Source of the DNA: a virus
Virus record (IMG/VR): IMGVR_UViG_3300021424_000003
Location: 55,345 to 119,344 of that record
DNA length: 64,000 nt
Strand: one strand, 5' to 3'
Position numbers and translations under genes: made by a program. Position 1 is the first letter of the stretch. Each line of letters opens with the position of its first letter. Below are positions 45,788 to 64,000 of the stretch, in pieces. A model generated the notes under the pieces. The model was given only the letters and a program-made list of their open reading frames with translations, was not told where the DNA came from and did no database searches.

Positions 45788-45809
45788 GGGTCAAACACCG
45801 TGGAAATGC

Positions 45810-45838
45810 TTGACTCGACCATTCCATTCGTGTACCGT
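45810..45838 (+). promoter_or_regulatory. SigA-type promoter driving the leaderless LysM gene
   Basis: TTGACT-17-TACCGT-7-ATG. Confidence 0.65.
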
Positions 45839-45845
45839 CGAAGGT

Positions 45846-46211: not shown

Positions 46212-46229
46212 GAGAGGTATGCTCGCACT

Positions 46230-47319: not shown

Positions 47320-47489
47320 CGAATAGCAACAGAGGCGCACGGGTATCTACGGGTAAGTAACCAGTGCCACCGTTTCGCTAGTAGTACCACCACAACACCA
47401 CGCTAGTACCACCACCACCACACCATTAGGGGAAGCCACAGGCACCACGCAAGGATTAGAAGTCTGCCCGACACAAACATTCTCCAAGT

Positions 47490-47557
47490 AACGAAAGAGC
47501 CTCACCTATCGGAGTCTCGGGGGGCGAGACTACTACGATAGATGAGGCTTTTTCGTT
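47490..47557. terminator. Long hairpin / bidirectional terminator between convergent units
   Basis: AACGAAAGAGCCTCA..CTATCG..AGTCTCG / CGAGACT..CGATAG..TGAGGCTTTTTCGTT. Confidence 0.7.
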
Positions 47558-47603
47558 TCTCACCGTAGCACACTCTCGGGTATGCCGTGACGGTCAAAAC
47601 CGG

Positions 47604-48071
47604 TCAGAAAGGTTCGTCGTCTGGAACGTTCGCAACACTCGCCATCGCAGGGCGACGACGCTGACCACTCGACGGCTGACCGCCACGGGTATTCGTATTG
47701 CCACCCTCGTTGTCTTGACGCTTGCGACGCTCGATACTTTCTAGCGAGAGACTATTCACCGCAATAGTTTCGGCGACAAACTCAACGGTGGAACGCTTGT
47801 TGCCTTCCTTGTCCTCGTATGAGCGTTGTTCCCAGCGTCCGGTCACGACCGCACCAACACCCTTTTCCAAGACTCGTGCCCCTGCCTCAGCGATGAACCG
47901 CCACGCAACGATGTTGAAGTATGAAACTTTTTCTTGTTTCTCACCAGCGTTGTCGTACCAGACATAGTTACACGCAATGGAAAATCCGAGGCGTGCCTGA
48001 CCTGATGTTGTAAATGTTAGTTCGGGGTCTTGTGTAACATTCCCGACCAATACTCCTGAACTGTTGTTCAT
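47604..48071 (-). CDS. ssb: Single-stranded DNA-binding protein
   Basis: VGNVTQDPEL.FT, WR..AE..L.KG..V.V.GR.EQRSYE.KEG.KRS, C-terminal DDEPF. Confidence 0.92.
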   Translation of the reverse strand: MNNSSGVLVGNVTQDPELTFTTSGQARLGFSIACNYVWYDNAGEKQEKVSYFNIVAWRFIAEAGARVLEKGVGAVVTGRWEQRSYEDKEGNKRSTVEFVAETIAVNSLSLESIERRKRQDNEGGNTNTRGGQPSSGQRRRPAMASVANVPDDEPF

Positions 48072-48209
48072 TCTGTCTCTCTCCTTGTTTGAGGTACAGC
48101 CCCAACATACCAACCGTCGGTGACCAGCGCAACACGGGTTACCCACGGGTAACAATAAATCACCAGCGTTACGCGCGCGTATCAGTAAACGGGAGTAAGG
48201 TACGGGTCT

Positions 48210-48500
48210 ATGGCACAAACACCAGAAGAAATGACCAAAGAACAGAAAGCCGCTTTCCTTACGCTCGTGGAAGGGATAGCCAGTGGGTTCTACTACTTCC
48301 TCTTTGATGAAGAAACTATGGACGAAGAAGAAGGCACAGAACTAGGCGTAGATTGCGCTGAAATGGCGTTCCAAATCTGTCTCGCAATGGATGTCGACGT
48401 AATGGAAGTCAGGTCGGACACGGAGTTCGTCGTGAAGTTCGTTATGCCGGAGAACATAAATGACCACCTGAGCGAGAAGTTCGGCATAGGGTTCTTTTAG
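48210..48500 (+). CDS. Acidic hypothetical protein (leaderless)
   Basis: TAAGGT -10 shortly before the ATG. Confidence 0.65.
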   Translation: MAQTPEEMTKEQKAAFLTLVEGIASGFYYFLFDEETMDEEEGTELGVDCAEMAFQICLAMDVDVMEVRSDTEFVVKFVMPENINDHLSEKFGIGFF

Positions 48501-48652
48501 AAATCTCCCCGCAGGGGTTGTGGAGCCCCGTTCTAGGCACTAGGGTATGGGGAGGTGCCAAATACTCCATTCCATTTATGGTAGTATTGAGAAACACCTC
48601 ATAGCCCACCCGATGGTAGGGCAGTCCGTATCCGCCGAGGCTTGGAGACAAC

Positions 48653-49882
48653 TTGACGAACAGACACCTTTCTCTCATTCCTGCCCTTTTTATCCTCGTC
48701 ACCACCTACGGGTGGGGTCAGGTTCAGGCGAAGGAGGGAGAGGGGGTCAGTCCGAAAACACCTAAGGTCGCCGTTACGACTGCCACACCGTCCACGGGCG
48801 AGGTTCAGGGGCAGGAATACCCATTAGACCTAAGCCCCTCGACCATACGCAGTCAAGCGGTCAGGCGACCCCACGCCCTACCGACCGACTCATTCTGGGA
48901 CGAGCTGGCACAATGCGAAACAGCGCAGGACTGGCAGAACGGCGGGCGCTATGCGGGCGGTCTCGGGATTATGACTGCCAGTCAGTTCCCGAAAGCGTCT
49001 ATGGGTACTTGGGAGCGGTTCGGGGGCGAGGAGTTCGCACCGTCCCCCGACAAGGCGACCCGCGCCGAACAAATAGAAGTCGCCAACCGTATTGCCGTCA
49101 AGGGTTGGAGCACTATCCACCACCGAGATAAAGACTGGGCAAAACGAAAAGGCATACCCGTCGTATGGCACTACAAGCGACCAGCAGTGGGTCTTACGGG
49201 TTGGGGTTGCTACAAATCGAAGTTCACGGGCAAATACAGAATGGCAAAACCGAAGTTGTATTACTACATAGACCACGAGAAAGTGCCGTTGTTCCAGTTC
49301 TCGTGGGGCGAGCAGAGTCACGCAACTCACGACCTACAAGTGCTCATAGGGGGCGTGAAGGTGGACAGCGTGTATGGAGAGAAAACACGCCAAGCGCACA
49401 TCGCCTACCTCAAAAAACACGGACTCTCCCGTGAGGGCGTTCCAAGTAAGCCGAAAAAGGAATGGCGCACGGGTTCCGTATCAACACAGTCAGCAAGCGA
49501 GACAATAAAGCGTTGCCCCCAATGGGAAAGAGCACTAAAAAAGTACGGCCTTCCAGTTAGTCGGTTTTCCTACATTATGTGGAGAGAGAGCCGATGCGAG
49601 CCGAAGGTAATCGGGTGGAACTACAAACCGGGTACCGGCTATTGGAGTTGTAAGAGAGTGCCTGCCGATAGATACAAGAAGTGTTCAGCCATTCATTCTT
49701 ACGACAGTGGGCTTCTACAAATCAACAGTTCGTGGAAAACGGTGACAGCGCAAGTGTGCGGTTCTCGATGGGGCGACCTAACCGTTCTACTAACGGTGGA
49801 ATGTAATCTACGGGTTGCTTCGTATCTCTACAATGAGGGCGGAGGAATAGATAACTGGGCAGCAACCAGCGGTCGCAACTAA
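48653..49882 (+). CDS. Secreted muralytic protein: Rpf-like transglycosylase + PG-binding-like region + SLT domain
   Basis: Signal peptide; WDELAQCE..W..GGL..TWERFGG..P..ATRAEQI.VA; IMWRESRC..DSGLLQIN..W..NL.VA.YLY. Confidence 0.8.
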   Translation: MTNRHLSLIPALFILVTTYGWGQVQAKEGEGVSPKTPKVAVTTATPSTGEVQGQEYPLDLSPSTIRSQAVRRPHALPTDSFWDELAQCETAQDWQNGGRYAGGLGIMTASQFPKASMGTWERFGGEEFAPSPDKATRAEQIEVANRIAVKGWSTIHHRDKDWAKRKGIPVVWHYKRPAVGLTGWGCYKSKFTGKYRMAKPKLYYYIDHEKVPLFQFSWGEQSHATHDLQVLIGGVKVDSVYGEKTRQAHIAYLKKHGLSREGVPSKPKKEWRTGSVSTQSASETIKRCPQWERALKKYGLPVSRFSYIMWRESRCEPKVIGWNYKPGTGYWSCKRVPADRYKKCSAIHSYDSGLLQINSSWKTVTAQVCGSRWGDLTVLLTVECNLRVASYLYNEGGGIDNWAATSGRN

Positions 49883-50079
49883 ATGTGTCCAGCGTCTATT
49901 GCGACGCAGTAGTCAGCAACCGCCTGATACCTACGGGCTTCATCGTACAATGCGAGAGCGTCACGTAGTTTCTCTCGTCTGTAACCGTGAAGGACGACGA
50001 CCGTCTCGTCGTACTCCTCTAACTCACTTAGTAGTAATGAGTCATACAGTGCTTCGGCAGCATCTTTCCATTTGTCCAT
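49879..50079 (-). CDS. Hypothetical protein
   Basis: MDKWKDAAEALY..., start approximate. Confidence 0.5.
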   Translation of the reverse strand: MDKWKDAAEALYDSLLLSELEEYDETVVVLHGYRREKLRDALALYDEARRYQAVADYCVAIDAGHI

Positions 50080-50099
50080 AGACAAACGATACACTTTTG

Positions 50100-50187
50100 C
50101 GGAGAGAGAGGGATTTGAACCCCCGGTGGGCTACAAACCCACGCCTGTTTTCAAGACAGGTGCTTTCAGCCACTCAGCCATCTCTCC
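50100..50187 (-). tRNA. tRNA-Ser(TGA)
   Basis: GGAGAGA acceptor; CCTGT-CT TGA AA-ACAGG; long variable arm. Confidence 0.92.
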
Positions 50188-50217
50188 CGTCGCCGTTCTC
50201 GGGCGGGTCTATTTTAG

Positions 50218-50289
50218 AGCCCAGAGTCAGGATTGAACTGACGACCTACCGCTTACAAGGCGGTTGCTCTACCACTGAGCTATCGGGGC
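50218..50289 (-). tRNA. tRNA-Thr(TGT)
   Basis: CCGC-CT TGT AA-GCGG; one acceptor-stem mismatch. Confidence 0.85.
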
Positions 50290-51889: not shown

Positions 51890-53802
51890 ATACCCATTAG
51901 GTCAAGTATGAGTTTGATAGCCCCGTCGTCGTCGTCTGCCATTACGCCATCGACGGCTGCGTTCACAACGCTACGCTTTCTCTCAATGAGGCTGTAAATC
52001 TCCTCGTCTATCGTCCCCTCGGTGAGTGCGTATGTAACGGTGACGCTTCCTTTCTGTCCGAGTCTATGTAGCCTCGAAAATGTCTGGTCTAAATCTGCTG
52101 GTGTCCACGGAAGTTCTACAAACAAAATGTCTTGTGCTGCTGTGAGTGTGTGTCCAGTTTTGGCAGCCTGAATAGAAAGGACTATGACGGGTGCTTCCTC
52201 GACCGAAAGTTCCTGAAACTTTCTTTTCTGTTCTTCTATCTCAGAAACTTCCATACCGCCCTGTATCCGTAAGTTCCCGAACTTACGAGCCAGTTCATCA
52301 ACAATGTCTCGATGGTGTGCTGCTATCACAACCTTTTTGCCGTCGCTCACTCGCAACTGTACCCATTCCTCAACACTCGCCATTTTCGCTTTTGCGGATA
52401 ACCGTCGTAGAACAGAAAGTCTCACCAATGTTTCGTTACTCTCTGCTTTTATTCTTGCCACTACCGCCGCCGAACGGGGTGACTGTCCGAGTTCTTTCGC
52501 TATCTGCTTCGCTCGTTCGACCAGATAATCAACTATGTCCCTTTCTGCCTTGCGATACTCCGCCATAGAGTTTGCGTTCCCCTCGACCAGCACAGGGCTG
52601 TGTATTACTGGGGGCAACTCGGATAGAACTTGGTCTTTCGTTCTCCGTATGTAGCAAGTTCCCCGTAGTCTGTCGTTGAGTTCGTCTAAGTGTGAGTGAC
52701 CGCTTATGTTCCATTGACCGTAACTATCCTGAAATGCGTTACAGTACCTACGATAAAACCCCCATAAGCCGCCGAACTCTTTGAGTTTGCCCAGTATTTC
52801 CAACTGAGATGCGTACTCCGCTGGTCTATTCGTAACTGGCGTTCCGGTTAGACACAGAACTAAACCGTCTTTTGCGGCGCTTTTGGCTACCCTCTGAGCG
52901 GACTTCGTTCGCTTCGCCGTAGTCGTCTTACAGTAGTGGCTCTCGTCGAAAACATACGAGCGATGCTTCGACAGTTGCTTTTCCCACTTAGTTAGGTTGC
53001 TGTAACCAACTACCAACACGTCGTAGGTGCCCTGTTCGGGTACTTCCTTTGCCCCTGGGCGTATGACCTCAACCCTGCGTTCGGGTAGCCAACGGTTGTA
53101 TTCGGCTTTCCAGTTGAGAACGAGACTCGGTGGGCAAACAACTACTGCCGGATAACTGTCCCACACGTGCTCAATAGTCGCTATCGCTTGGAGAGTCTTA
53201 CCCAACCCCATCTCGTCGGCTATGAATACTCTCTTGGCATTGGATGCGTAGGCTACGCCAGCCCTCTGATACGGGAGAAGTTCCGCTCTGAGGCTCGGTA
53301 TCACAATCTCTGCGTCGGTGGAACGTGACGCTTCTATGAGCTTCCCGACCTCTTTCTTGACCGACTCCGAGTACGCTCGTATCTCGTCGTCTAGCGGGAT
53401 AGAGAAATGCTCCGCCCACGCGATTACCTCAGCAACTGAGGACTTTGGAGCCATCCACGCCTTTTTCGTGGAACTCCAAGTTATTCCGGGAACCTGCTTG
53501 ACCGACTTGATAATGACTCTCTCGTATGGGAACTCCAAATACAACCAGTCGCCGTCCATTGAGACATTCCTTCCAGTCCGCTTCTTGGGGACTGGAAACG
53601 TGAGAACTTCGTTTTCTATGATAAACCCGTGCCGTACAGCGAAAAATCGAGCGTCCTCTATCGAGGTAACGGGCAGTCGCCATACCCTCGAAATCTTGTC
53701 CCATTTGGAGCCGGTAATCCGTTTTATCTCGTCTACCTGCTCTTTGTCGTACGGAAAGTCCAGAACAAGATGGTCGTTCACTATTCGCAAGGTAGAACTC
53801 AT
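51886..53802 (-). CDS. SNF2/SWI2 helicase with two N-terminal HARP-like domains (SMARCAL1-like)
   Basis: FPY..IK..G..W..K.W x2; ADEMGLGKT, DESHYCK, LTGTP..N, Q..SRLHRLGQ; leaderless TAGCAT-6-ATG. Confidence 0.88.
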   Translation of the reverse strand: MSSTLRIVNDHLVLDFPYDKEQVDEIKRITGSKWDKISRVWRLPVTSIEDARFFAVRHGFIIENEVLTFPVPKKRTGRNVSMDGDWLYLEFPYERVIIKSVKQVPGITWSSTKKAWMAPKSSVAEVIAWAEHFSIPLDDEIRAYSESVKKEVGKLIEASRSTDAEIVIPSLRAELLPYQRAGVAYASNAKRVFIADEMGLGKTLQAIATIEHVWDSYPAVVVCPPSLVLNWKAEYNRWLPERRVEVIRPGAKEVPEQGTYDVLVVGYSNLTKWEKQLSKHRSYVFDESHYCKTTTAKRTKSAQRVAKSAAKDGLVLCLTGTPVTNRPAEYASQLEILGKLKEFGGLWGFYRRYCNAFQDSYGQWNISGHSHLDELNDRLRGTCYIRRTKDQVLSELPPVIHSPVLVEGNANSMAEYRKAERDIVDYLVERAKQIAKELGQSPRSAAVVARIKAESNETLVRLSVLRRLSAKAKMASVEEWVQLRVSDGKKVVIAAHHRDIVDELARKFGNLRIQGGMEVSEIEEQKRKFQELSVEEAPVIVLSIQAAKTGHTLTAAQDILFVELPWTPADLDQTFSRLHRLGQKGSVTVTYALTEGTIDEEIYSLIERKRSVVNAAVDGVMADDDDGAIKLILDLMGI

Positions 53803-53833
53803 AGATGTATGCTAGGGCAACGGAGGTGTCGCT

Positions 53834-54070
53834 ATGGATAATGCAGAAGAACGAATACTCGGTCTGGAAAAGACGGTAATGACCCTTATCGGGCAGATAG
53901 ACGCTCTTCGTCGCAGGCTGGATAAGCTCGAGCATCCGTCTAAGTCCGTTGTCGTCGAGATGAGCCCTGCTGGCTCCCTCGGCAGGACACATAAAAGCCT
54001 CAGCGACCTGTCCACTTCCGGTAGCCCTATCCCCCGCCACCCCGGCCCATACGGCGGTGACGCCGCGTAA
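53834..54070 (+). CDS. Hypothetical protein
   Basis: GGAGG RBS. Confidence 0.6.
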   Translation: MDNAEERILGLEKTVMTLIGQIDALRRRLDKLEHPSKSVVVEMSPAGSLGRTHKSLSDLSTSGSPIPRHPGPYGGDAA

Positions 54071-54114
54071 GCGGGGCCCAGGACGGGGTGAGCGAGTGAC
54101 CCACCCACTATGGA

Positions 54115-54300
54115 TTAGTAGTCGTCGCCCCCGAAATACCCGTAGTCCTCGTCGGTTCCCCATCCCGCACTAGCGAGAGCGTCGGCATCCGCCCAAACGT
54201 CATCCTCCCACGGCTCGGTGTCGTCGTCGTCGTACTCGTAACAAACGTCATCCTCCTCACGGATGTCGTCGTCATCTTGGATTTCGTGGTCGCTGTTCAT
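54115..54300 (-). CDS. Highly acidic small early protein
   Basis: Leaderless behind a motif promoter; DADALASAGWGTDEDYG. Confidence 0.75.
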   Translation of the reverse strand: MNSDHEIQDDDDIREEDDVCYEYDDDDTEPWEDDVWADADALASAGWGTDEDYGYFGGDDY

Positions 54301-54640
54301 AAGTAGAACAATAACGAAGGGGGGTAAGAGTCTCCCCGACCCGTTCGGCGGTTCCCTCTCCCCTCATGAGCCGAGAGCCCCCATTGGGGGCGAAGCGGAA
54401 CCCGGGGCTCCCGCCATAAACAAGAACCCCCTCCCCGAATGATGTGCGGTGGGGAGAGGGCTCCTGCGACCCCAGCCTAGTCCACGTGGAGTTTCTTGCG
54501 ACACCAAGCACAACGCATACCGTCCCACAGTCGGGGGTCGCCCTCGTAGATAGGTTCGGGGGCTGTTACCTGCTTGTCGGAGCACCTAAGGCAGTTGATG
54601 TGCCTGCCTGTTGCCCACGCAGCCTTTCGGCGGTTCTCGC

Positions 54641-54820
54641 TCATCGGTACCATTCGGGGTCGTAGGTAAGTTCCCCGTCCTCGTCCTCAGAGGACGAGAA
54701 AAGGGGGACGTTCGCACGTACCCACTTCACCACGGTCACAAGACCAATGGCGAAGATACCGAAGCCGGCCATCTTCACAAGGAAGCCAATGACGATGATG
54801 AATGCTTGCGCTGTTTCCAT
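54641..54820 (-). CDS. Small membrane early protein
   Basis: Leaderless ATG 7 nt after TAAGGT. Confidence 0.65.
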   Translation of the reverse strand: METAQAFIIVIGFLVKMAGFGIFAIGLVTVVKWVRANVPLFSSSEDEDGELTYDPEWYR

Positions 54821-54938
54821 GAGGTGAACCTTACCGAAGGGGGGTAATAGTTCCCCGGGGGCTAATGCCAACTTCGTTCAGTCTCTCATTCATAATCCAA
54901 CCCTATCATTCCGGCAAACGGGGCTCCAAACGGGATTT

Positions 54939-55070
54939 TCAGTCCTCGCTTTCGCAGTCGTGACCGTAGAACCATTCGTTCGCTTCGTCCTCGTCCAGTA
55001 GGCGAAACACACGCCCACACTCAACACACTTGGCCTCGCTGTGAGAGGCGTACACGCTTCTCTCGCTCAT
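54939..55070 (-). CDS. Small Zn-binding protein (CVEC..HDCE)
   Basis: Coupled to the upstream stop. Confidence 0.6.
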   Translation of the reverse strand: MSERSVYASHSEAKCVECGRVFRLLDEDEANEWFYGHDCESED

Positions 55071-55312
55071 CAGTAATCCTCGTCCTCGTCGTCCTCGTCG
55101 GCCTCGTCCTTGTCCACCGAGAACCACGCCATAACGGTTCTCAACAGGTTGTCGTAGTCGCCCGAGGTTGCTTCCGATACGAAAGTGTCCACCTCGTCTC
55201 GCAAGCCGTTCCGCTCCATCTCCCTCGTACACCGTGCGAGGATAGAGAAAGCGTTTCCGTCCTCACCGACAAGGCGAATGGAAATGTCTGGGTATTTGGT
55301 CGATGTGTTCAT
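55070..55312 (-). CDS. Conserved-looking phage small protein (LVGEDGNAFSI..SGDYDNLL) with acidic tail
   Basis: Leaderless behind a motif promoter. Confidence 0.75.
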   Translation of the reverse strand: MNTSTKYPDISIRLVGEDGNAFSILARCTREMERNGLRDEVDTFVSEATSGDYDNLLRTVMAWFSVDKDEADEDDEDEDY

Positions 55313-55377
55313 ACCCCCAACATACGCAGAGGGGGTAAGAGTTTCCGAGAGGGCTTTCCCGAGCCCCGTTTCCCCAT

Positions 55378-55587
55378 TCACCACGGCAGGCTTGTCTTTC
55401 CGAAACGGTGCGCCCAGATGCGCTTAGTACGCCACGACCTCCGCAGGTCGCATAGCCGAACTGTCTCCCTCGGGTCGCCGTGGCAGTCCTCGATGTTCTC
55501 CGCTATGAGTCTCGACAGTCTGGCTAGTTGGCTGTCGCACTCCTCGACGGTGGGCAGTTGGGCTACCCAGTCTCTCCGAGCCATCAC
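55378..55587 (-). CDS. Hypothetical early protein
   Basis: Overlaps the upstream stop. Confidence 0.5.
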   Translation of the reverse strand: MMARRDWVAQLPTVEECDSQLARLSRLIAENIEDCHGDPRETVRLCDLRRSWRTKRIWAHRFGKTSLPW

Positions 55588-55844
55588 TTGTTCCAGCGAC
55601 TATTCCAGTTGCTAGGAAGCCCCCACGGTGTGAGGGTTGCTTCTATCGCTTCCTCGACCGCCTGTATGGCTCTACGTGCGTGACCGTACTTGTGAACGAG
55701 GGCGAGAATGTCGGAGTGCTCGGCTCCTAGTGCGTTCTCGAACCCGTGAGACCTAAGAGCCTTCTCCATAGCCCTTAGGGTCTCGTCGATAGCGTCGAGC
55801 GCCATCGCTGCTGAATGAATAGTGAAAGTGTCGCTGTTGTTCAT
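55584..55844 (-). CDS. Hypothetical early protein
   Basis: Leaderless behind a motif promoter. Confidence 0.7.
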   Translation of the reverse strand: MNNSDTFTIHSAAMALDAIDETLRAMEKALRSHGFENALGAEHSDILALVHKYGHARRAIQAVEEAIEATLTPWGLPSNWNSRWNK

Positions 55845-55963
55845 GCCTGAACTGTACCTAAGGGGGGTAACAGTTCCCCCGACCCCTACCCGTGGGCGAC
55901 ACGAAATCCGGGGCTCAGAGCCCCTGTTAGAAACTCTTACCCCCCTGCCGTATTATCCCCCCC

Positions 55964-56332
55964 GTGGATAGCGACAAGAAAGGAACCACAGTGGCAGACA
56001 GCGACTTCATCTTCCGTGTTCGGGAGGCGTTGGAGGGGAGGAAGATAATCCCAGACGGGCACACCATCTTTGCCCCCTCTTTCTACTTCCCACACTTCAC
56101 GGAGGAACAACTAGCAGAGGCGAAACTAATCCGTCGTCACAAGAGCGATGGCACTTGGAAGGGAAGCATTACGACAAACGGCGAGCCCGTGGACGAGTGT
56201 GAAGGGGTCTACAACCTTTCGTTCCTCTACTGGGTGGCTAGCGAGCTCGGAGTTACCGAGTCGGTACAAGCCTCAGGGCGTGGCTTCCAAGCACAAGAGT
56301 TGGTCGGCTACATCACCGACGCTCTGGCCTAA
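55964..56332 (+). CDS. Hypothetical early protein
   Basis: Motif promoter; start is 55964 (leaderless) or 55991 (AAAGGA RBS). Confidence 0.7.
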   Translation: MDSDKKGTTVADSDFIFRVREALEGRKIIPDGHTIFAPSFYFPHFTEEQLAEAKLIRRHKSDGTWKGSITTNGEPVDECEGVYNLSFLYWVASELGVTESVQASGRGFQAQELVGYITDALA

Positions 56333-56472
56333 GGAGTCGGGCTGGCCTAAGGGGTCGGGTCGCTCACGGGTTCCGGCCCGTGGGTGCCCCTCACCCCCCT
56401 CCCGAGCCCCGTTTTGGAGGTTTCGGGGGTTGTCTGAGGAAACTGATACCCCCCGGTGGTACATTCCTACCT

Positions 56473-56628
56473 ATGGAAAGCGACAGCGCACCGAGCATCA
56501 AAGACGAACCGTGGTACGACGAATGGCTCGACCACGAAGCCAGCCGAGCCGAGGCTTACCTCTGTGAGACAGAGCCCGAGAAGCCTGAGCCCGATTTCCC
56601 CGACTACGAAGACGACGGAGTCTTCTAA
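56473..56628 (+). CDS. Acidic small early protein
   Basis: Leaderless ATG 7 nt after TACATT. Confidence 0.65.
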   Translation: MESDSAPSIKDEPWYDEWLDHEASRAEAYLCETEPEKPEPDFPDYEDDGVF

Positions 56629-56861
56629 TGACCTACGAAGATTTTGAGATGCTCGTCCGGTCATCGTTCCCCGATGACGGCGACATTCGGTATGGACAGC
56701 ATTGGTTCAACACTCTGTATTCGGTGAAGCCCGAGGTTGCTGACCGCATCAGGGGGACACTCCACGACCCTTTCCACCGGGAGAAAGTTTCAGAGCAGGC
56801 ACAAGGCGTTGCTCGTACTCTCTGGAACGACATTCGTGCTCACGACAGGGTGAGTGAGTAA
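56628..56861 (+). CDS. Hypothetical protein (RYGQ..FN.L..DPF)
   Basis: TAATG coupling. Confidence 0.7.
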   Translation: MTYEDFEMLVRSSFPDDGDIRYGQHWFNTLYSVKPEVADRIRGTLHDPFHREKVSEQAQGVARTLWNDIRAHDRVSE

Positions 56862-57046
56862 TGGGGCTTATCTCTTCTGTCGTCGCCTACAAGGTCGGCA
56901 AGAGGCGTGGTGAACGCCGGGCGGAACGACGCAACAGCGGAGCTCCCGATGGTCCTTACGACCCACGCTGCGACAACTATCATTACTGTAAGGCGCGACA
57001 GGTTTGTAGTGGCGACTGTACTTATGAGGACTTAGAAGATGAGTGA
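56861..57046 (+). CDS. Small Cys-rich protein
   Basis: TAATG coupling. Confidence 0.6.
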   Translation: MGLISSVVAYKVGKRRGERRAERRNSGAPDGPYDPRCDNYHYCKARQVCSGDCTYEDLEDE

Positions 57047-57152
57047 AGAAAAGCCGAAAGAAAAGAAAGTCATCATTGGCGGCGAGAAGAAGCCCCGTTC
57101 CGCCAAGATACAAACTAGGCGTGTCCGGAAAAAGTGTTGCCGGGGTTGAGCA

Positions 57153-57419
57153 TTACTGTCTTATGGGGCGAACGAAAATAGGTGTCTGCTCTCCGACCCA
57201 AGCACCGACAACATTGAACTCGATGTATTCGATAGCCTCGTCGTATGTCATTCCGTCTCTGAACATCAAAACATCGACGATTTTGTTGTAGTCATAAACA
57301 GCAAGTAGTGGTTCGTTTATCCGTTGTGCGAACCCTATGAGTGCGTCTTCAAACCCGTCAGCCAAAAGAGCTGACTCTCCGATGTCGTTGAGGTATTGGT
57401 CTATGTCGTCTCTCGTCAT
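57153..57419 (-). CDS. Conserved-looking phage protein (ADGFEDALIG..AVYD..EA.EY.EFN..GAWVGE.TPIF)
   Basis: Leaderless TATTCT-6-ATG. Confidence 0.75.
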   Translation of the reverse strand: MTRDDIDQYLNDIGESALLADGFEDALIGFAQRINEPLLAVYDYNKIVDVLMFRDGMTYDEAIEYIEFNVVGAWVGEQTPIFVRPIRQ

Positions 57420-57423
57420 ACGG

Positions 57424-57615
57424 TCAGAATAGCGTAGGGTCGTTGTCTTTACCAGGGGCAAGACAAAACTCGTGGGCGTACCTAAACTCTTCCTCAACCA
57501 CAGAATGAACTGTCCTGCCACTTCCTTTGAGCCACACTACTGCTCTCCGGACTGTTGAGTTGGACTTTCTATCTAGGGGGTATCCACACTTTTCGCAGAA
57601 GAACAAATCGGTCAT
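57424..57615 (-). CDS. Small Zn-finger protein
   Basis: CEKC..HEFC; leaderless TATGAT-6-ATG. Confidence 0.65.
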   Translation of the reverse strand: MTDLFFCEKCGYPLDRKSNSTVRRAVVWLKGSGRTVHSVVEEEFRYAHEFCLAPGKDNDPTLF

Positions 57616-57737
57616 AAACCAATCATACCGGGGCTTCGGGGGAGGAAAAAACAAGGGAAGTGGGTACAGCGACGAAACCCACTTCCCTCTAACCGTCTCA
57701 ACCGATGTCTGGAAATACCGGGAGCCGGAGTTCTTGC

Positions 57738-58271
57738 CTAATCGAAAGGGTCGTACCCTCTTGTGTTGTAGGGCGGTTGTCCCTTGATGTTCGGAATGGC
57801 ATCGCCGATGTTCTCGCCGATGTTCTCCCAACCTAAGTAGAGAATACGCTTCACGAAAAACTGAATACTGGAACGGACATAGTTGTCCACCATCGCTTCG
57901 GTTAGAAGTCTAGAAACCTGACTTCCATTTTTCTTTCGGTCTTGAAGCGTCTTTACGACTTTTTCTGTGACGTGCTGAGAAATGAAAGCACCTCTGTCTC
58001 GTCTGAGGCCGAGGTCTATCTCTAAGCCTTCTGATAGAACCGAGATGATGGTCTCGCCTATCAGCGTCGTCACTTTGTCGAGAGTTCTCTTGGGGTGGTA
58101 GACCCCCGGCAGAACGCCGTTCCAGTCCTCTACTGAGTATTTGCCTCTACGCTCATAGAGAACGTGAGACACGCCGTAGTCCTGTGATGTCGCCCACGCA
58201 AGGTCGGCCTCTGAGAAACGCAGTCTCAGGGTCACGTACCTCGGCGGTGCGGAAATGGTGTCGCTGTTCAT
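57738..58271 (-). CDS. Hypothetical early protein
   Basis: ATGA coupling; starts ATGAACAGCGAC. Confidence 0.65.
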   Translation of the reverse strand: MNSDTISAPPRYVTLRLRFSEADLAWATSQDYGVSHVLYERRGKYSVEDWNGVLPGVYHPKRTLDKVTTLIGETIISVLSEGLEIDLGLRRDRGAFISQHVTEKVVKTLQDRKKNGSQVSRLLTEAMVDNYVRSSIQFFVKRILYLGWENIGENIGDAIPNIKGQPPYNTRGYDPFD

Positions 58272-58621
58272 ACAGTCGAATGCCCTAAGCGGGTTATTTC
58301 ACCGGGAGTAAGACGGTCGATAGCGATAGAGGCAGTCTCTAACAGTCGGCAACCTTTCATGTATGCCTCAGCGTCAGGGCCGTAATGGTCATACCCGTTC
58401 GACCACCAATAGGCCGGGAGTTCATACCCCTTGGCGGCTGGCGACATTAGTTTTAGTTGGTCATCGCTTAGCCCATTCAGCCAACGCTCACGCCAGAGTG
58501 GGTCGTTCCACTCGTCACTGTAAGGGTGTGGAAACTGACGGCTTTCGGGCTCCCAGAGCTCCTCATCTCCCGCGCTGTATGGGTAGGCAATGACCTGTTC
58601 GCTGTTGTGTTCGCTGTTCAT
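58268..58621 (-). CDS. Hypothetical early protein
   Basis: Leaderless behind a motif promoter. Confidence 0.7.
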   Translation of the reverse strand: MNSEHNSEQVIAYPYSAGDEELWEPESRQFPHPYSDEWNDPLWRERWLNGLSDDQLKLMSPAAKGYELPAYWWSNGYDHYGPDAEAYMKGCRLLETASIAIDRLTPGEITRLGHSTV

Positions 58622-58734
58622 AGGTGTAAATGTATCACCGGGGGGTAAGAGTTTCCTATGGGGCTTTCTGACGAGGCGCCCGGGGCTTCTGACCCTCCGA
58701 GAGAGAGGGGGGCTTCTCTCTCGGAGGAGGGGGG

Positions 58735-59061
58735 CTACGGGTGGAACTTGTAGAGGAAGGGGAATGAAGGGTGAGACTTGCGGGATTTCCTACGAAGGCT
58801 CTCTATCTCGTTGCGAGCCCACACGGTCGCTAGGGTCGCCACACAAGACGACGCAACCGTGAGAACAAGCCCGAGAACGAGGTCAAAAAGTCTGCCCGTG
58901 AAGTGTGACCTCACGGTACTGATGGTGCCTGCCAGAGCACACGCCCAGAGAGCCCAAGCAACGAAATGGTAGGGAGCCGTGGGGTACTTCTGGTCTAGCC
59001 ATCGGCTCATACGAGCGTCCCACCTGTCTAGAAGGTTGATGATGTTTCTGTCGCTGTTCAT
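58735..59061 (-). CDS. Membrane early protein (2 TM)
   Basis: Leaderless behind a motif promoter. Confidence 0.7.
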   Translation of the reverse strand: MNSDRNIINLLDRWDARMSRWLDQKYPTAPYHFVAWALWACALAGTISTVRSHFTGRLFDLVLGLVLTVASSCVATLATVWARNEIESLRRKSRKSHPSFPFLYKFHP

Positions 59062-59208
59062 ACGGGTTACCTTACAGAGGGGGGGTAAGAGTTTCCGAGG
59101 GACACCCCGGGGCTCCGATGTGAGAAAGACAAGGGGAGACAGGTCGAGGGGGCGACCTTCTCAACCCTTGCCTTTCTCTCTCTGTCTGCCAGCGACAGAC
59201 AGACAGAA

Positions 59209-59493
59209 CTAGACGACTGTCCTCATTGGGATAATCGGTCGGGGGATACCGTGAGGGTCGCAGTCGTCCTCGTTGGTCTCTTGCTGTGGGCAGTATCGAG
59301 GGTCAATGCCCCAAGTGTCCTGCCACACTTTCGCAAGTGCGTAAGCCTGCCCCACCGTGAGACACGGAATGGAGAAGCGGTGGCTGTCGCTACTGTCCCC
59401 AGTCGGGCTGGATAGCCAAACCGTGAGAGTGGTGTCCACTACTTGTAGTGCTATGGGTGTGCCCTTGTAAGAGGCGTATTTGGTTGTTTCCAT
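59209..59493 (-). CDS. Hypothetical early protein
   Basis: Leaderless behind a motif promoter. Confidence 0.7.
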   Translation of the reverse strand: METTKYASYKGTPIALQVVDTTLTVWLSSPTGDSSDSHRFSIPCLTVGQAYALAKVWQDTWGIDPRYCPQQETNEDDCDPHGIPRPIIPMRTVV

Positions 59494-59743
59494 AGGGTGA
59501 ACATTAGTGAAGGGGGGTAAGAGTTCCCAAGCCTCGCCATTATCCCCATTCAGAACCCAGAGGCGAGCCCCGTATTCATAGGTTGTAACACATCACTATC
59601 CGTTGCAGTCGGCAAACGGGGCTCACCCTCACGGTTCGACTCTTGGGGGTAGGGCAGGCGGGGAGCCTGTCGGCAGGATTACGGGTCACCCGATTTACCT
59701 TGCCGATTAGCGTTATTGGGGCACTCTTCAGTCCCCACCCGCC

Positions 59744-59917
59744 CTACGACCTGTTTGCGCCTACTGGCACGACATCACCCGTACCGCAGTCGGCGCAGTC
59801 CTCGCCATCAAAGTACCAATAGTCGCCCTCGACCGCCATTTCGCCTTTCAGGACTTGCCCACAGACGGCGCAGGCGTAGCGGGGGGTCTTGGTGGTCTTG
59901 GTGTCGCTGTTCTTCAT
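59744..59917 (-). CDS. Small Zn-finger early protein (CAVC..CADC)
   Basis: Leaderless ATG 6 nt after TATGTT. Confidence 0.7.
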   Translation of the reverse strand: MKNSDTKTTKTPRYACAVCGQVLKGEMAVEGDYWYFDGEDCADCGTGDVVPVGANRS

Positions 59918-60081
59918 ACGGACAACATAACAAGGGGGGGTAAGAGTTCCCCGCCTATCGCTCTCCCTGCCGAGCCCCGGGTGCTTCGATACGGGTACAC
60001 AAGTGTTTGCCCTGAATGTCGGCAAACGGGGCTTTGCTGTAAGGCTAATGGTTGCGCTGTACCTTGCCATTCCCGGCCTCC

Positions 60082-60450
60082 CTACTTCCAAGTGCCGGCG
60101 TTCCAGACGATTTCCGACAGTCCGAAACAGTCCACGTCTTGCGCCTCGTACTCGTTCACCACGGTTCCACGCAGTTCGCCACGGTTCACCAGACGGACAC
60201 GGCGCACGTTGTAGTAGTCCAGAAAGTTCAGCACGATTTCCACCGCACGGCTCTCACCGCAGAACAGGAGAACGCCCACGGTGTCGCCGTAGTCGTCACG
60301 GATAGCCGTCCACCGGCCTCCGCAGGTGGCGAGGAAGGTGGGCGCACCCATCTGCCTGATGACCTCTTGGGGGTCGCACGCACGGAACCCGGTACGGTCA
60401 CGGGCGAGAAGGTGGATGAGGGTTGCTTGGGTCTTGGTCGCTGTTGCCAT
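60082..60450 (-). CDS. Hypothetical early protein
   Basis: Leaderless behind a motif promoter. Confidence 0.75.
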   Translation of the reverse strand: MATATKTQATLIHLLARDRTGFRACDPQEVIRQMGAPTFLATCGGRWTAIRDDYGDTVGVLLFCGESRAVEIVLNFLDYYNVRRVRLVNRGELRGTVVNEYEAQDVDCFGLSEIVWNAGTWK

Positions 60451-60627
60451 AGGTGAGACATTACGGGAGGGGGGTAACAGTTCCCGCAGGCTCTCTCTCT
60501 CGAGCCCCGCGTTCCGTGTCGCCCCCGAAGGGGGCTAACGGCTCAGGAGGGACGGGGTGGGTCGGGGGAAACTTCTACCCCCTCCACCTAGTGTCTACTC
60601 AACAGCGACGACCTGAGGAGGTTCCTA

Positions 60628-60879
60628 ATGGGCTGGTATGGCGGCGAGTGGGTCAATGGCCCGTGCGAGGACGCTCCGTGTTGTGGGTGCTGTGGCCCCT
60701 CTCTCGACCGAGCCGACGACCTGTATTGGGAGGAGCGCTCTCGCTACGAGGACGACGACCCGGACGCAGGGTGGGAGGACGACGACGAGGACGAGGACGA
60801 CGACCCGGACGACGAGAACGGGGACTACTGGCAGGCCGAGGACTCGGCCTTAGAGTCATCACTATTTGGGGACTGCTGA
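60628..60879 (+). CDS. Highly acidic early protein with CEDAPCCGCC
   Basis: Motif promoter, short leader, GAGGAGG RBS. Confidence 0.75.
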   Translation: MGWYGGEWVNGPCEDAPCCGCCGPSLDRADDLYWEERSRYEDDDPDAGWEDDDEDEDDDPDDENGDYWQAEDSALESSLFGDC

Positions 60880-61127
60880 CCGCAGGGGGGCGAGGCTCGG
60901 GCTTCTCCCCTCACGGGAGCCCCGGTCTCTGTCTGTTTCTTGCGGAACTTTAGGGTTTGGCATGGAAACACGGGGCTCCTAGGGGTATTAGTGCCGGAAC
61001 TCTGCCCACGGGTCACGGCCTGCCGCTAGTTCCTCTTGCTCCCAAAAGATGAGGTCATACGCCCAATGGTCGCACTCGTAGCACGGACACTTGCTCTCGT
61101 GTCCTTCCGGCTGCTCGGGTCTCGGCC

Positions 61128-61619
61128 TCATACCGTGAACGCTCTCTGCTTCGCCCCTATGAGGGCTGCCTTCTCCGGGTCACCCACTCGTCGCCCCTCT
61201 CGGAACCCGACAGGATTACGGAGGCCTTCGGGGAGAACCCACAAGTGGTATTGGTTGGCCTCGTCCACTAGGTCACTCTCCGGAGGGTAAATCTCGACGG
61301 CCTCTCTCTCGTCGCCCATTAGTTCGCTCTTGATGCGTTGGAGATGCCGCCAATCGTGAACGGCCTTCTTGTCTCGCCTCTTGATGGACAGCCATACCCA
61401 CACTCCCTCCTCCCTCTCAATCGGGATACAGGACACTTGGTAAATGTTGTTGATGAAAGTGGTGGAGTGCTGCCGGTACTCGGCTAGGCCATTCAGCTCG
61501 TCCTCGGGTAACCCGGCGGCAAGTAATCTGCTGCGTGTCTTCTCGAAGGGCGGCAGTACGGCCTGCTCCCACTCGCCCCACTCTCTCGGTGCGGTGCGAC
61601 CGTTCTTCTTCTTGGTCAT
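61128..61619 (-). CDS. Conserved-looking phage protein (WLSIKR..HDWR.LQRIK..EA.E.YP..LVD.AN.YHLW)
   Basis: ATGA coupling to the upstream ORF. Confidence 0.75.
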   Translation of the reverse strand: MTKKKNGRTAPREWGEWEQAVLPPFEKTRSRLLAAGLPEDELNGLAEYRQHSTTFINNIYQVSCIPIEREEGVWVWLSIKRRDKKAVHDWRHLQRIKSELMGDEREAVEIYPPESDLVDEANQYHLWVLPEGLRNPVGFREGRRVGDPEKAALIGAKQRAFTV

Positions 61620-61768
61620 AGCCAGTCCACCAAGTCGCCATCGGCAATCTCGGAGTAGTCAAGGTCATTGGCATCGGCAATCGCCTGCCATACGGCCTCT
61701 TCCGTGAGGGGCACGTCCCAATCGATGTAGTCGTGCCATGTCTTTGTCTTTTTCGGGTCGCTGGTCAT
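61616..61768 (-). CDS. Acidic 50-aa early protein (not in the ORF track)
   Basis: MTSDPKKTKTWHDYIDWD..DGDLVDWL; leaderless behind a motif promoter. Confidence 0.7.
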   Translation of the reverse strand: MTSDPKKTKTWHDYIDWDVPLTEEAVWQAIADANDLDYSEIADGDLVDWL

Positions 61769-61962
61769 GGGTAGGAATGTAGCAGAGGGGGGTAAGAGTT
61801 CCGAAACGCTCGCGAGCCCCGATGTCCGGGTAAGCCCTGCTTGCTACCGCAAACTAGCGCTAGCAAGAGCAAGCATAGAAGTCGAGAGAACGAGGCTGGG
61901 GTAGCCTAGGAAACTGTTACCCCCCTTCGGTATTATCCAGCCATAGCCGAGGGGGTGAAATA

Positions 61963-62130
61963 ATGAAAAGAGTCTACCGGGTATCCCTGTGGACCTCCAT
62001 TGAGGTTGAGGCAGATAACGAAGATGACGCTAGTGATAAAGCGTTCGGGCTTCTCCCCTTCCAGCGCCGACGTAACTTTGATGTTGAGACCCAAGAACTC
62101 AACCAAGACGGGCCCCAAGACCAAGCCTAA
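61963..62130 (+). CDS. 55-aa early protein (not in the ORF track)
   Basis: MKRVYRVSLWTSIEVEADNEDDA...; motif promoter and GAGGGGG RBS. Confidence 0.7.
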   Translation: MKRVYRVSLWTSIEVEADNEDDASDKAFGLLPFQRRRNFDVETQELNQDGPQDQA

Positions 62131-62358
62131 GGTCAGGGAGGTCCCTTAGGGAGAGGGGAACCGTACCCCGAGAGTTCCCCTCTCCCCTCCTCCCTGCAAC
62201 TGGGCGGGATGAGTGTCTGTGTTACCACAGCACCGAGAGGAACCTAGCACCGTGAAGCCCCGTTCTAGTGGAACTGCGAGTTGGTAGCTCGGGGCTCCCC
62301 CGCAGTCACCGCCCCCCATCGGTCGGCTCGTGGTCGGCTCGGTGGCAGTAGCAGCACT

Positions 62359-62589
62359 TCATTTGGCAGCACTCCCGTCGTTGTCCGGCTTCTCGTCCAT
62401 CGTCTGAATGATGCGCCCGTCCGCGTCCGTGAGCGTTATCGCTCCGCGTGCCCACAATGCGACATTTGGATAAGCGAGGGACAACACGCGGAATGTCCCG
62501 GTGAGTATCGCGTCGGCATCGTCGGTCGCGTGAACGGTGACCGACTTGCGGTGGCCGTCCAGTTCGGCAGTGAGTGTGTAGGTGTTCAT
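62359..62589 (-). CDS. Hypothetical early protein
   Basis: MNTYTLTAELDG... Confidence 0.6.
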   Translation of the reverse strand: MNTYTLTAELDGHRKSVTVHATDDADAILTGTFRVLSLAYPNVALWARGAITLTDADGRIIQTMDEKPDNDGSAAK

Positions 62590-62647
62590 TAGAAACCTGC
62601 CTCGCCACAGGCGTAGCACTGGTAGCGACCGGCGAACCTGTCCTCGC

Positions 62648-62827
62648 TCACCAGTCACCCTCCAACAGTTCACGGGCATCTTCGGCTGTGCCGATTTCCA
62701 GTTCACCACCGAGGTATCGCTTCTTCGGGCACCGAGCCTTGTGCGTGGACAGTTCACGCTGGGCCGTGTAGCCGTCGTAGGTGAATGTCTGCTCGCAATA
62801 CGGGCAGGTGAGTGTCTCCTGGCTCAT
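62648..62827 (-). CDS. Small Zn-finger protein (CPYC..H..C)
   Basis: TGATG coupling. Confidence 0.65.
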   Translation of the reverse strand: MSQETLTCPYCEQTFTYDGYTAQRELSTHKARCPKKRYLGGELEIGTAEDARELLEGDW

Positions 62828-63087
62828 CACCAGCCTCCCAGTTCGTCGAGGTAATCCTGCTCGTCTTCCCAACGGGCGAGAGCCTCCCATTCGGGAGTAC
62901 CGAACTCGGGTCGGTCAGAGGGGCGCTCCTCGCCATCACCCTCGGGGGCTGAAAGGTAACCCGCCCGATGAGCAATACCCGACTGCCAAGCACGGTCGGC
63001 ATCGGCAGAGCGTCCACCGCCCGAAACCCAAGAAGAAACGAACTCTGCGTAAGCCAGTCCCTCGTCCTCGTAATCCTCGTAATCCAT
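62827..63087 (-). CDS. Acidic early protein
   Basis: GAGGGA RBS; leader contains ACAGCGAC. Confidence 0.7.
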   Translation of the reverse strand: MDYEDYEDEGLAYAEFVSSWVSGGGRSADADRAWQSGIAHRAGYLSAPEGDGEERPSDRPEFGTPEWEALARWEDEQDYLDELGGW

Positions 63088-63251
63088 TTCCCTCTCGCTT
63101 TCTTGTCGCTGTTGTGATTAGGAACCTAAACATAACAAGAGGGGGTAAGAGTTTCCGGAGGGGCTCGCTGCTGAGCCCCGTGGTACGACATTTGGTATCA
63201 GCTCAGCCGGGGCTCCACCGCGAGTAGGGGCAAGGCGTTCGGTTCGGTTGG

Positions 63252-63572
63252 TCAGGCTAGTTTGTAGTGACCGCCTCGTGCCTCGTAGCGGGTCGTTGCC
63301 TCGTCGAGAGTGGCGCAGTAGTCGCCACAGGAGAAAGACCAACCCCTATCAGGGTGGTCAATGGCGTCCCACACGGCGAACGGGTGGTAAGCGTTGTGAG
63401 GTAGATGGCACAGGACAACCCAACAAGCGTAAGTGTCCACGTCGCTCGGACTCATGAGCCAGCAGGCTAGAACGGTCACGGGGTCGCTCATACTTGCCGA
63501 CTGCACGACCTCGCTCACGGACAATGTACGCATAGGGTAGGTGTCGGTTGGGGATTTGGAAGTGTTGGTCAT
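63252..63572 (-). CDS. Hypothetical early protein
   Basis: Leaderless behind a motif promoter. Confidence 0.7.
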   Translation of the reverse strand: MTNTSKSPTDTYPMRTLSVSEVVQSASMSDPVTVLACWLMSPSDVDTYACWVVLCHLPHNAYHPFAVWDAIDHPDRGWSFSCGDYCATLDEATTRYEARGGHYKLA

Positions 63573-64000
63573 AGGTAGGAATGTAGCACGAGAGGGTAAT
63601 AGTTTCGCTAGTGGATAGTTTCAGAGTCAATAAGCGGGGCTTCTCGGGGCAAGAAGAAAGACCCCTCGCCCACCCTCCGAAACTGGGGCTAGCACCCACC
63701 GATACAGAGGGCTGTATCAGAGGAGGACGGTCGATAGCCGGAGGGAGTGTCGCGGTGACTAGTACACCGGAGGGACTGTCGCGGTTCGGAGCCTTATCCA
63801 GAAGGGAGCCGTGTATTCAGTTGTCTCGGAGGGGAGGCGAGGAGCCTCTCTCACAAGGGACACATTACGGGAGGGGGGTAAGAGTTCCAAGGGTCGCCAG
63901 TATGAGTCGTTTCGGAGCCCCGGGTGTCCCCCTTCGGTGCTAAGCACCATCGGGGCTCGGCAGAGAGTGAGAGTGTCCCCCTGCCCCCTGCCCCCTGCCA

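Follow-up and report, generated by a model that had tools for sequence, protein, structure and literature searches.

The genome segment described here raises the question of why unrelated genes of one virus begin with almost the same few bases, and whether these bases serve as a peptide, a relic of copying or a signal. The segment, called the window throughout, comprises the final 64,000 bases of the 119,344-base IMG/VR record IMGVR_UViG_3300021424_000003 (G000), which is classed as linear and estimated to be 79% complete. Its last 10 kb (53.8-64 kb) form an island of early genes, and a motif with the consensus (A)ACAGCGAC, hereafter the tag, recurs near the starts of these genes. An earlier note on this DNA, written from the letters alone, had proposed that the motif is a nucleic-acid signal just inside the 5' ends of early transcripts that overrides protein sequence. 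We show that the tag is real, positionally enriched, maintained by selection at the nucleotide level, and specific to this phage lineage.

The island is organised around a repeated promoter, which we defined as ACTCTTACCCCCC (up to three mismatches), followed by exactly 5 variable nucleotides (nt) and the -10 element TANNNT. Seventeen copies are present, 13 leftward and four rightward. TANNNT is invariant at its fixed place in all 17, and the -35 position reads GGAAAC or GGGAAC rather than TTGACA. An invariant block, GGAAACTCTTACCCCCC, lies where the -35 element and spacer would be (17 sites, 54,331-63,885). A scan for consensus promoters returned two sites, no excess over shuffled sequence, and a scan for terminators likewise gave no more sites than shuffles. 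Because an ATG or GTG lies only 6 or 7 nt past the -10 in 14 of the 17 units, the messages from these units are predicted to begin at or beside the start codon and thus to be leaderless; all +1 positions given here are predictions from the -10. The remaining three (60571+, 61913+ and 63152-) have a leader with a Shine-Dalgarno sequence. Usually, a unit precedes one to four short genes, often joined by ATGA overlaps, and then a stable hairpin. Stable hairpins are predicted in the 3' regions preceding most promoters, many of them built on the common half CGGGGCTC, which is frequent 20-35 nt upstream of the promoter as the 5' half of a hairpin.

Within the window, ACAGCGAC occurs 12 times as compared to 2.21 expected, a count reached by none of 100 shuffles. 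The whole record holds 13 copies, ten of which lie between 53,800 and 64,000 of the window, and the three outside the island match chance. The best match to the 8-mer within 37 nt past the -10 was exact at seven of the 17 promoters, and had one mismatch at five, two at one and three at four. A match with at most one mismatch is therefore found at 12 of the 17 promoters, as compared to 1.4% of 50,000 random windows of 37 nt taken elsewhere in the genome (0.05% exact and 1.3% with one mismatch), and the positional enrichment that had been named as a check of the signal was found. Fourteen copies are start-proximal (eight exact, five with one mismatch and one with two), and all 14 stand in the sense orientation, across both strands of the island. 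Twelve of them begin 5-8 nt into the coding sequence, within +5 to +15, and the other two end 17-18 nt before the ATG (18 nt at P12; 17 nt at P15, where the tag lies just 5' of GAGAGGG). The offset from the -10 is 7, 11, 12, 13 or 16 nt. AGGAG is contained in none of the 14 copies. The variant bases are mostly at positions 1, 2 and 8, the central AGCGA is kept, and second or tandem copies occur in P5, P6 and P7.

All of the positions listed in the earlier note hold a copy (Table 1). Those at 54289, 55830, 59050, 59903, 60437, 60602 and 63105, as well as those following internal starts at 58260 and 55998, are exact, and the one-base variants at 55968 (ATAGCGAC), 56477 (AAAGCGAC) and 61757 (CCAGCGAC) and the duplication near 58600 (ACAGCGAA at 58610-58617 and 58598-58605) are also real. 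The copy near 54810 exists as well, as a two-base variant (ACAGCGCA, 54807-54814). One further copy, at 55299-55306 (ACATCGAC, in the gene starting MNTST), extends that list.

Table 1. Promoter units of the early island and reversed copies of the tag (positions in the window; one-letter peptides give the encoded start).
Feature	Coordinates	Strand	Promoter and start	Tag
P1	54289..54331	-	core 54319-54331; -10 TATTGT 54308-54313; ATG 54298-54300	exact ACAGCGAC 54289-54296; AAC AGC GAC, MNSD
P2	54807..54851	-	promoter, ATG	two mismatches, ACAGCGCA 54807-54814; frame ACA GCG, METAQ
P3	55299..55342	-	promoter, ATG	one mismatch, ACATCGAC 55299-55306; ACA TCG ACC, MNTST
P4	55830..55874	-	promoter, ATG AAC	exact 55830-55837; MNNSD
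P5	55933..56005	+	promoter, GTG 55964	one mismatch, ATAGCGAC 55968-55975 (MDSD); second, exact copy 55998-56005 (ADSD), 30 nt on
P6	56442..56490	+	promoter, ATG 56473	one mismatch, AAAGCGAC 56477-56484 (MESD); overlapping second variant ACAGCGCA 56483-56490
P7	58598..58652	-	promoter, ATG	one mismatch, ACAGCGAA twice, 12 nt apart, 58610-58617 and 58598-58605; MNSEHNSE
P7b	58260..58271	-	second cistron, promoterless; ATG overlaps P7 stop (ATGA)	exact 58260-58267; MNSD
P8	59050..59092	-	promoter, ATG	exact 59050-59057; MNSD
P9	59491..59524	-	same promoter, leaderless ATG; METTK; homologues in sister phages	untagged (best match three mismatches)
P10	59903..59947	-	promoter, ATG AAG	exact 59903-59910; MKNSD
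P11	60437..60481	-	promoter, ATG GCA	exact 60437-60444, out of frame (ACA GCG ACC); MATAT
P12	60571..60630	+	promoter; GAGGAGG; ATG 60628	exact 60602-60609, 7 nt past -10 (at or beside predicted +1)
P13	61757..61799	-	promoter, ATG	one mismatch, CCAGCGAC 61757-61764; MTSD
P14	61913..61965	+	same promoter; leadered (GAGGGGGTG, then ATG 61963)	untagged
P15	63085..63152	-	promoter; ATG 63085-63087	exact 63105-63112 in leader, 16 nt past -10
P16	63570..63603	-	diverged promoter copy; leaderless ATG; MTNTS; homologues in sister phages	untagged
P17	63852..63885	-	promoter; GTG 7 nt past -10; precedes strongly structured ~250-nt stretch	untagged
Terminator hairpin after P7 operon	57653..57689	-		11-nt loop UUCGUCGCUGU, exact complement of the tag (ACAGCGAC at 57666-57673 on +)
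Reversed near-copy, hairpin apex in P9 3' region	59189..59196	-		CCAGCGAC on +; 10 nt complementary to 5' end of P8 message

The copies are kept as nucleotides rather than as amino acids. Nine start-proximal copies read AAC, GAT, GAA or ACC followed by AGC and GAC (or GAA), three lie in another frame (ACA-GCG or ACA-TCG, in P2, P3 and P11), and two are untranslated (in the leaders of P12 and P15). Serine is encoded by AGC in all nine in-frame copies, as compared to 26 of 110 (23.6%) in island gene bodies, and the chance of nine out of nine is 0.236^9, or about 2e-6. The 5' end of P3 reads ATG AAC ACA TCG ACC AAA TAC CCA GAC, and that of its 66% identical orthologue in sister locus L198 reads ATG AAA GAA CCA AAG TAT CCC GAT (MKEPKYPD). 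P11 starts MATATKT (ATG GCA ACA GCG ACC AAG ACC), and its homologues (59-62% identity), which are leadered in IMG/VR relatives, start MK[APL]T[KN]T, as in L344 (ATG AAA GCA ACG AAA ACC). These comparisons indicate that the G000 lineage altered the first codons of P3 and P11 into the 8-mer or a one-off copy of it, in an unusual frame.

Pairwise identity was calculated per column, with the 17 units aligned on the promoter. It reaches 0.9-1.0 in the promoter core. The sequence ahead of the core, the 5-nt spacer, the three free -10 positions and the discriminator all give 0.21-0.40, as compared to 0.256 expected. Since these neutral columns are at random identity, common descent has been erased at unconstrained positions, and the copies of the tag in the same units, seven exact and five with one base changed, therefore reflect purifying or convergent selection. 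The AGC serines, the out-of-frame copies of P2, P3 and P11, the two leader copies, the rewritten starts of P3 and P11 and the randomised neutral positions together uphold the proposal that the tag is a nucleic-acid signal overriding protein sequence.

To delimit the tag, we drew on 24 loci from sister phages that have the neighbouring SNF2 gene (62-90% identity). These phages contain large leaderless arrays of another promoter type (GGTTGT, a 17-nt spacer that is partly phage-specific, TANNNT, 6 nt, ATG), and their 123 unique leaderless starts hold no exact copy of the tag and three copies with one mismatch. The G000-type promoter recurs four times in G001, an 18.4-kb virus record without tblastx similarity to G000 (three units leadered and one leaderless), and none of these four promoters has a tag. 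In pattern scans of viral and metagenome contigs, G001 was the sole record with the same promoter among the matches listed, the others being nearly all single chance hits. The four G001 copies lie at 162, 1752, 2444 and 2512 (L015/L342). A homologue in the 24 sister loci was found for one of the 12 tagged first cistrons (P3), as compared to two of the three untagged first cistrons tested (P9 and P16; not P14). P7b and P11 had no matches among GenBank phages, and relatives of P7b were not found in IMG/VR; the 14 loci found through the DUF7694 protein are other phages, with four ACAGCGAC copies in L341, none of them near starts. Since the sister phages and G001 are untagged and the tagged cistrons are mostly orphans, the tag marks a lineage-specific, GC-rich, mostly orphan gene set, rather than a promoter type or leaderless genes in general. 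In four lake runs the G000 population was nearly clonal, and none of the differences shown lay within a tag, the variation being too low to serve as a test of conservation.

Some of the sister-phage units have a 5'-terminal ATG followed by an in-frame GGAGGTGAAAATG (L191, L203 at 6694, 12257 and 12580; L202 at 5193; L190 at 12167; L198 at 9758), so that one message offers two AUGs at a distance of 18-21 nt, the first leaderless and the second led by a Shine-Dalgarno sequence. In L344-L358, from other lake phages, a conserved block, GTGTGACAA(C/A)(T/C)GCCAC, lies about 60-75 nt upstream of the leadered P11 homologue, and is a possible operator in that lineage.

We favour, tentatively and with slightly less than an even chance, the reading that the tag is the docking or binding site of a phage-specific trans-acting factor, protein or RNA, which would jointly control the early set. 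Singling out 13 sites in this genome takes about 14 bits, close to the content of a 9-mer, and it is this information content, together with the edge-tolerant core and the tandem copies, that makes the tag look like a binding site. Actinophages also provide precedents, namely the start-associated sequences of Cluster K and the stoperators of Cluster A, both discussed below. In effect, the tag is a start-associated sequence shifted past the AUG, into the first ~20 transcribed bases of early cassette genes, as most of the messages are predicted to be leaderless. On RNA, the tag would lie within the stretch of the initiating ribosome, from about -26 to +15 of the start codon, and a bound reader would mask the codons next to the AUG, except in the two leaders, where it would sit immediately 5' of the Shine-Dalgarno sequence. 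On DNA, the reader would sit at +1 to +20, ahead of RNA polymerase and within the stretch that the polymerase covers. Since the site lies inside the ribosome or polymerase stretch, its occupant would switch the whole tagged set together. The likeliest outcome would be repression, with the tagged set shut off past the early phase and the untagged genes on the same promoter (P9, P14, P16, P17 and those of the four G001 promoters) spared. As the target of such a reader, RNA seems to us only just preferable to DNA, and of the functions named in the earlier note both a shut-off operator and an RNA tag read in trans would fit.

A candidate for the reader is an island-specific 59-residue protein encoded at 62,648-62,827 (-), which has the pattern C-x2-C...H-x4-C. 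It is predicted to form two strands and a helix, in the manner of a beta-beta-alpha zinc finger, with a predicted local distance difference test (pLDDT) score of ~90 over residues 1-30. Among solved folds, C2H2 and UBZ zinc fingers come closest, at non-significant E values of 0.6 or worse. Several further island proteins contain CxxC pairs, and small island-specific proteins resembling zinc fingers are also encoded at 54939-55070 and 59744-59917.

A number of points weigh against a phage-specific reader. The search of the 30 island proteins against Pfam, in which DUF7694 was the sole family above its cut-off, identified no reader. The transcript starts are predicted from the -10, and the tag is known from one genome only. 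The motif-anchored alignment, in which the tag is an 8-mer with sharp edges, was built from best matches and overstates the information content. The entire 36-nt stretch past the AUG is rich in A and C and unstructured, so that a general bias related to translation makes up part of the signal. The uniform orientation of the tag does not prove an RNA target, given the stoperator precedent discussed below. Finally, the P7b homologues start MNSD (98% identity), MDSQ (79%), METM (76%), MNSD (58%) and MAMNSD (54%), and the N-terminus of this family, MNSD or MAMNSD in three of five, may be partly kept as protein.

The alternative that survives best, although we consider it unlikely, is an intrinsic cis element of translation. 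The host ribosome would read the tag within the open, A/C-rich 5' end and thereby raise 70S initiation on the leaderless messages of a GC-rich gene set, and in the two leadered messages the tag would act from just upstream of the Shine-Dalgarno sequence. Such an element would account for the confinement of all 14 start-proximal copies to the interval between 26 nt before and 15 nt after the start codon, and for the exact copy (58260) at an internal start that is translationally coupled and promoterless; three more coupled starts read ATG/GTG AGC GAG. The context agrees with it. The first 36 nt of the 13 leaderless genes consist of A 0.40, C 0.32, G 0.16 and T 0.10, as compared to 0.22, 0.27, 0.31 and 0.20 in gene bodies, and are near structure-free, with a mean folding energy of -1.6 kcal/mol as compared to -7.4 for 502 internal windows (p = 3e-8). 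At 77 non-redundant leaderless starts of the sister phages, A is at 82% at +4 and at 30-65% at nearly all of the next 26 positions, and thus above its 28% background at nearly all of +4 to +30, while G is below background at most of these positions. CA repeats past the start codon are described as enhancing both leadered and leaderless translation in E. coli (PMC9031893).

However, the exact 8-mer retains two G and has a much higher specificity than openness and A/C-richness would require, and the A/C-rich, unstructured layer is ordinary selection for an open initiation region, upon which the 8-mer is a second layer. The exact tag is found at none of the 123 sister-phage leaderless starts, the single leaderless gene that G001 has on the same promoter is untagged, and the 64 16S ribosomal RNA (rRNA) sequences contain no conserved complement. 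In mycobacteria, a +1 RTG was necessary and sufficient, and randomised downstream sequence had no motif or composition effect (PMC4633059). The leaderless-translation enhancer that the earlier note had offered is weakened by these results.

Less probable again, in our estimate, is that the tag is a regulon mark of leaderless messages that is read as RNA, either by a small island protein or by the complementary loop UUCGUCGCUGU of the P7-operon terminator. In the loop variant, the 3' end of one early transcript would pair with the 5' ends of others and so time their shut-off. The sole exact reversed copy of the tag is this terminator loop, and it is not at a start. Reversed copies of CAGCGAC number four: the terminator loop, a hairpin apex, a coding region, and one that is possibly a sense copy in the open reading frame at 53834-54070 (+). 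About 0.2-0.3 reversed 7-mers are expected in the 2,687 noncoding bases. The reversed copies in hairpin loops are suggestive as an RNA lead, one picked out post hoc. As a general reader, antisense pairing is unsupported, wobble being kept by one of seven variant bases (C to T, P5). Directly past the terminator whose loop holds the reversed tag, a lower-GC segment of two genes (57,153-57,615, -), conserved in sister phages with up to 65% identity, has a distinct promoter-like site of its own (TATGAT, 6 nt, ATG).

We set aside three other ideas. No conserved site pairing with at least 7 of 8 bases was found in the 64 16S rRNA sequences, the best hits being in variable regions. A Chi-like recombination signal leaves the tie to gene starts unexplained. 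As for the sigma-dependent and elemental pause consensus sequences, the tag has no T for a -10-like pause, and G-10 would fall upstream of the transcript.

It is improbable that the tag is a passive legacy. On this reading, a unit of promoter and start multiplied by duplication or recombination and carried the tag along as its 3' end. Shared longer blocks would fit such copying: AGCGACAAGAAAG is common to P5 (coding) and P15 (leader), GCGACACCA to P7b and P10, and AGGTTCCTAAT is found ahead of the P12 ATG and in the P15 leader. The scarcity of sister homologues among tagged first cistrons (one of 12, as compared to two of three untagged) would fit as well. Contigs from all four lake runs also join 56,628 to 62,652 on opposite strands, as in a rearranged relative; clusters of differences adjoin both joint points (56,659-56,819 and 62,690-62,720). 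The joint is a sign of a co-occurring relative that would have the two cassettes side by side in inverted order. Nevertheless, neutral positions in the same units are random, so unselected descent fails to explain the seven exact and five one-off copies, and in P3 and P11 the tag arose where an older gene start was altered locally, not through a copied block in the usual frame.

Somewhat more doubtful still is an element of the promoter itself, in which the initial transcribed DNA, +1 to +15, would tune escape or the lifetime of the open complex. Thirteen of the 14 start-proximal copies lie at most 16 nt past a -10, all along the direction of transcription. However, the offset varies from 7 to 16 nt when the other promoter elements are fixed to the base, the tag is missing at four G000 and four G001 promoters, and one exact copy marks an internal start without a promoter. 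The downstream promoter element suggested at the outset thus fits poorly in its rigid form. The weakest alternative, a protein tag whose peptide, Met-(x)-Ser-Asp/Glu, would serve stability or processing, for instance, matches the x-Ser-Asp/Glu encoded by nine of the 14 start-proximal copies and the three P7b homologues (54-98% identity) that keep MNSD or MAMNSD, but is very improbable in view of the uniform AGC serines, the three copies in another frame and the two untranslated copies.

Other features of the island provide the setting of the tag. The record contains a WhiB-family gene (54 bits, above the cut-off), from which we take the host group to be actinobacteria, and G000 DNA recurs in lake-water metagenomes, with no RNA run among the matches listed; together these point to an uncultured lake phage of actinobacteria as the source. 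G+C is 57-60% in the last 10 kb as compared to ~47% in most of the window, and G+C at third codon positions is 0.69 in island genes as compared to 0.44 in long open reading frames elsewhere. Ten phage tRNAs, all reading A/U-ending codons, lie outside the island (39,425-50,289). The early regions of the sister phages have a G+C of 46-51%. The early island is compositionally foreign, and the shift in composition and the position and specificity of the tRNAs suggest that the early genes are tuned to a host richer in G+C and that the phage tRNAs serve later genes. Rfam returned no matches at E up to 1 in 53,500-64,000. The record has no matches to Sigma70_r2, Phage_integrase, Recombinase or NusG, although at 79% completeness this does not establish their true absence.

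Four early proteins are extremely acidic, with long Asp/Glu runs and Trp/Tyr (54,115-54,300; 56,473-56,628; 60,628-60,879; 62,827-63,087), a composition reminiscent of DNA-mimic anti-restriction proteins. ARAGORN called a 73-nt tRNA-Leu (aag) at 56,318-56,390 (+), overlapping the end of the P5 gene. As no Rfam tRNA was found there at E up to 1, and the long extra arm expected for Leu is missing, the call is probably false or due to a cluster of tRNA-like hairpins. The stretch following P17 (63,610-63,860, -; ~250 nt) folds at -94.4 kcal/mol (z = -3.2 as compared to shuffles) with a long closing helix, and contains the direct repeat ACCGCGACA(G/C)TCCCTCCGG twice, each one base off the tag and including CCUCC. 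It had no Rfam match, and the folding makes it a candidate structured non-coding RNA.

Among known systems, the early control of T4 by RegA and RegB is alike in logic, in that a repressor or nuclease encoded by the phage recognises early messages by a short tag where translation initiates. Those tags lie in or around the Shine-Dalgarno sequence, whereas the tag described here is of unrelated sequence and lies beyond the AUG in most messages. The nearest described system is the start-associated sequence (SAS) of Cluster K mycobacteriophages. Pope et al. (2011; PMC3203893) describe it as a 13-bp asymmetric repeat, GGGATAGGAGCCC, which includes the Shine-Dalgarno core AGGAG and is placed 3-7 bp ahead of starts; it is present in 11-19 copies per genome in the non-structural part, in one orientation with a rare reversed copy off starts, and accompanies unrelated gene families. 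Its role, according to a 2025 survey, still awaits experimental verification (PMC12699233). Like the SAS as described there, the tag is a short, asymmetric, phage-specific repeat in about a dozen copies, tied to starts in one orientation, with one reversed copy off starts, and it too is restricted to a non-structural region and to genes of unrelated families. However, it is 8-9 nt long, has another consensus without AGGAG, and is located after the AUG, where its codons fall in two frames, or 17-18 nt before the ATG. It is excluded from the SAS by both position and sequence.

The stoperators of Cluster A phages (L5 type) are, in the account of PMC9283540, asymmetric DNA 13-mers whose orientation follows transcription and at which a monomeric repressor stops RNA polymerase; they are distributed genome-wide, in short intergenic spaces of temperate phages with a known repressor. 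The tag shares with these the many asymmetric actinophage sites oriented along transcription (14 of 14 here), but it is 8-9 nt long, ten of its 13 exact copies are in a 10-kb island, and most copies are in 5' coding ends. Moreover, no repressor or integrase was found in this 79% complete record. By its distribution, the tag is not a stoperator.

The promoter-early stem-loop (PeSL) cassettes of T4-type phages resemble the island in layout, and provide the model for the copying of units considered above. As reported by Arbiol et al. (2010; PMC2839356), PeSL units flank small, often homologue-less genes in a plastic region, have a sigma70 consensus -35, end at the Shine-Dalgarno sequence and start codon, and show signs of rearrangement between units, with gene gain and loss and mini-circles. 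Repeated promoter units beside small genes and hairpins adjoining promoters are common to both, and the one inverted joint, in contigs of four runs, may reflect rearrangement here. In the island, 14 of 17 units lack a predicted leader, GGAAAC stands at the -35 position, and a conserved element lies beyond the start codon. CA-rich downstream enhancers and the downstream box (Martin-Farmer and Janssen 1999, cited in PMC9031893) are, as presented there, low-specificity repeats acting via the host ribosome. The tag is similarly placed just past the start codon, within the ribosome footprint (12 of 14 copies at +5 to +15) and in an A/C-rich context, but differs in being an exact, lineage-specific 8-mer without a 16S complement. 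We infer that the tag is a start-associated regulatory repeat of a new form, whose reader and outcome would be those favoured above.

Actinobacteria have many leaderless messages, which by the accepted view need nothing beyond an AUG at the 5' terminus. Here, some dozen unrelated early genes carry a high-information 8-mer across their first codons, and pay for it with fixed N-termini. This provides a clean system for asking if a dedicated factor can act collectively on leaderless messages, or on their promoters, and it bears on the role of the still unexplained start-associated sequences of mycobacteriophages. If the tag acts on RNA, it would do for leaderless messages what the Shine-Dalgarno-centred control of early messages does in T4. 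If functional, it may also offer a small, portable control handle for leaderless expression in actinobacteria.

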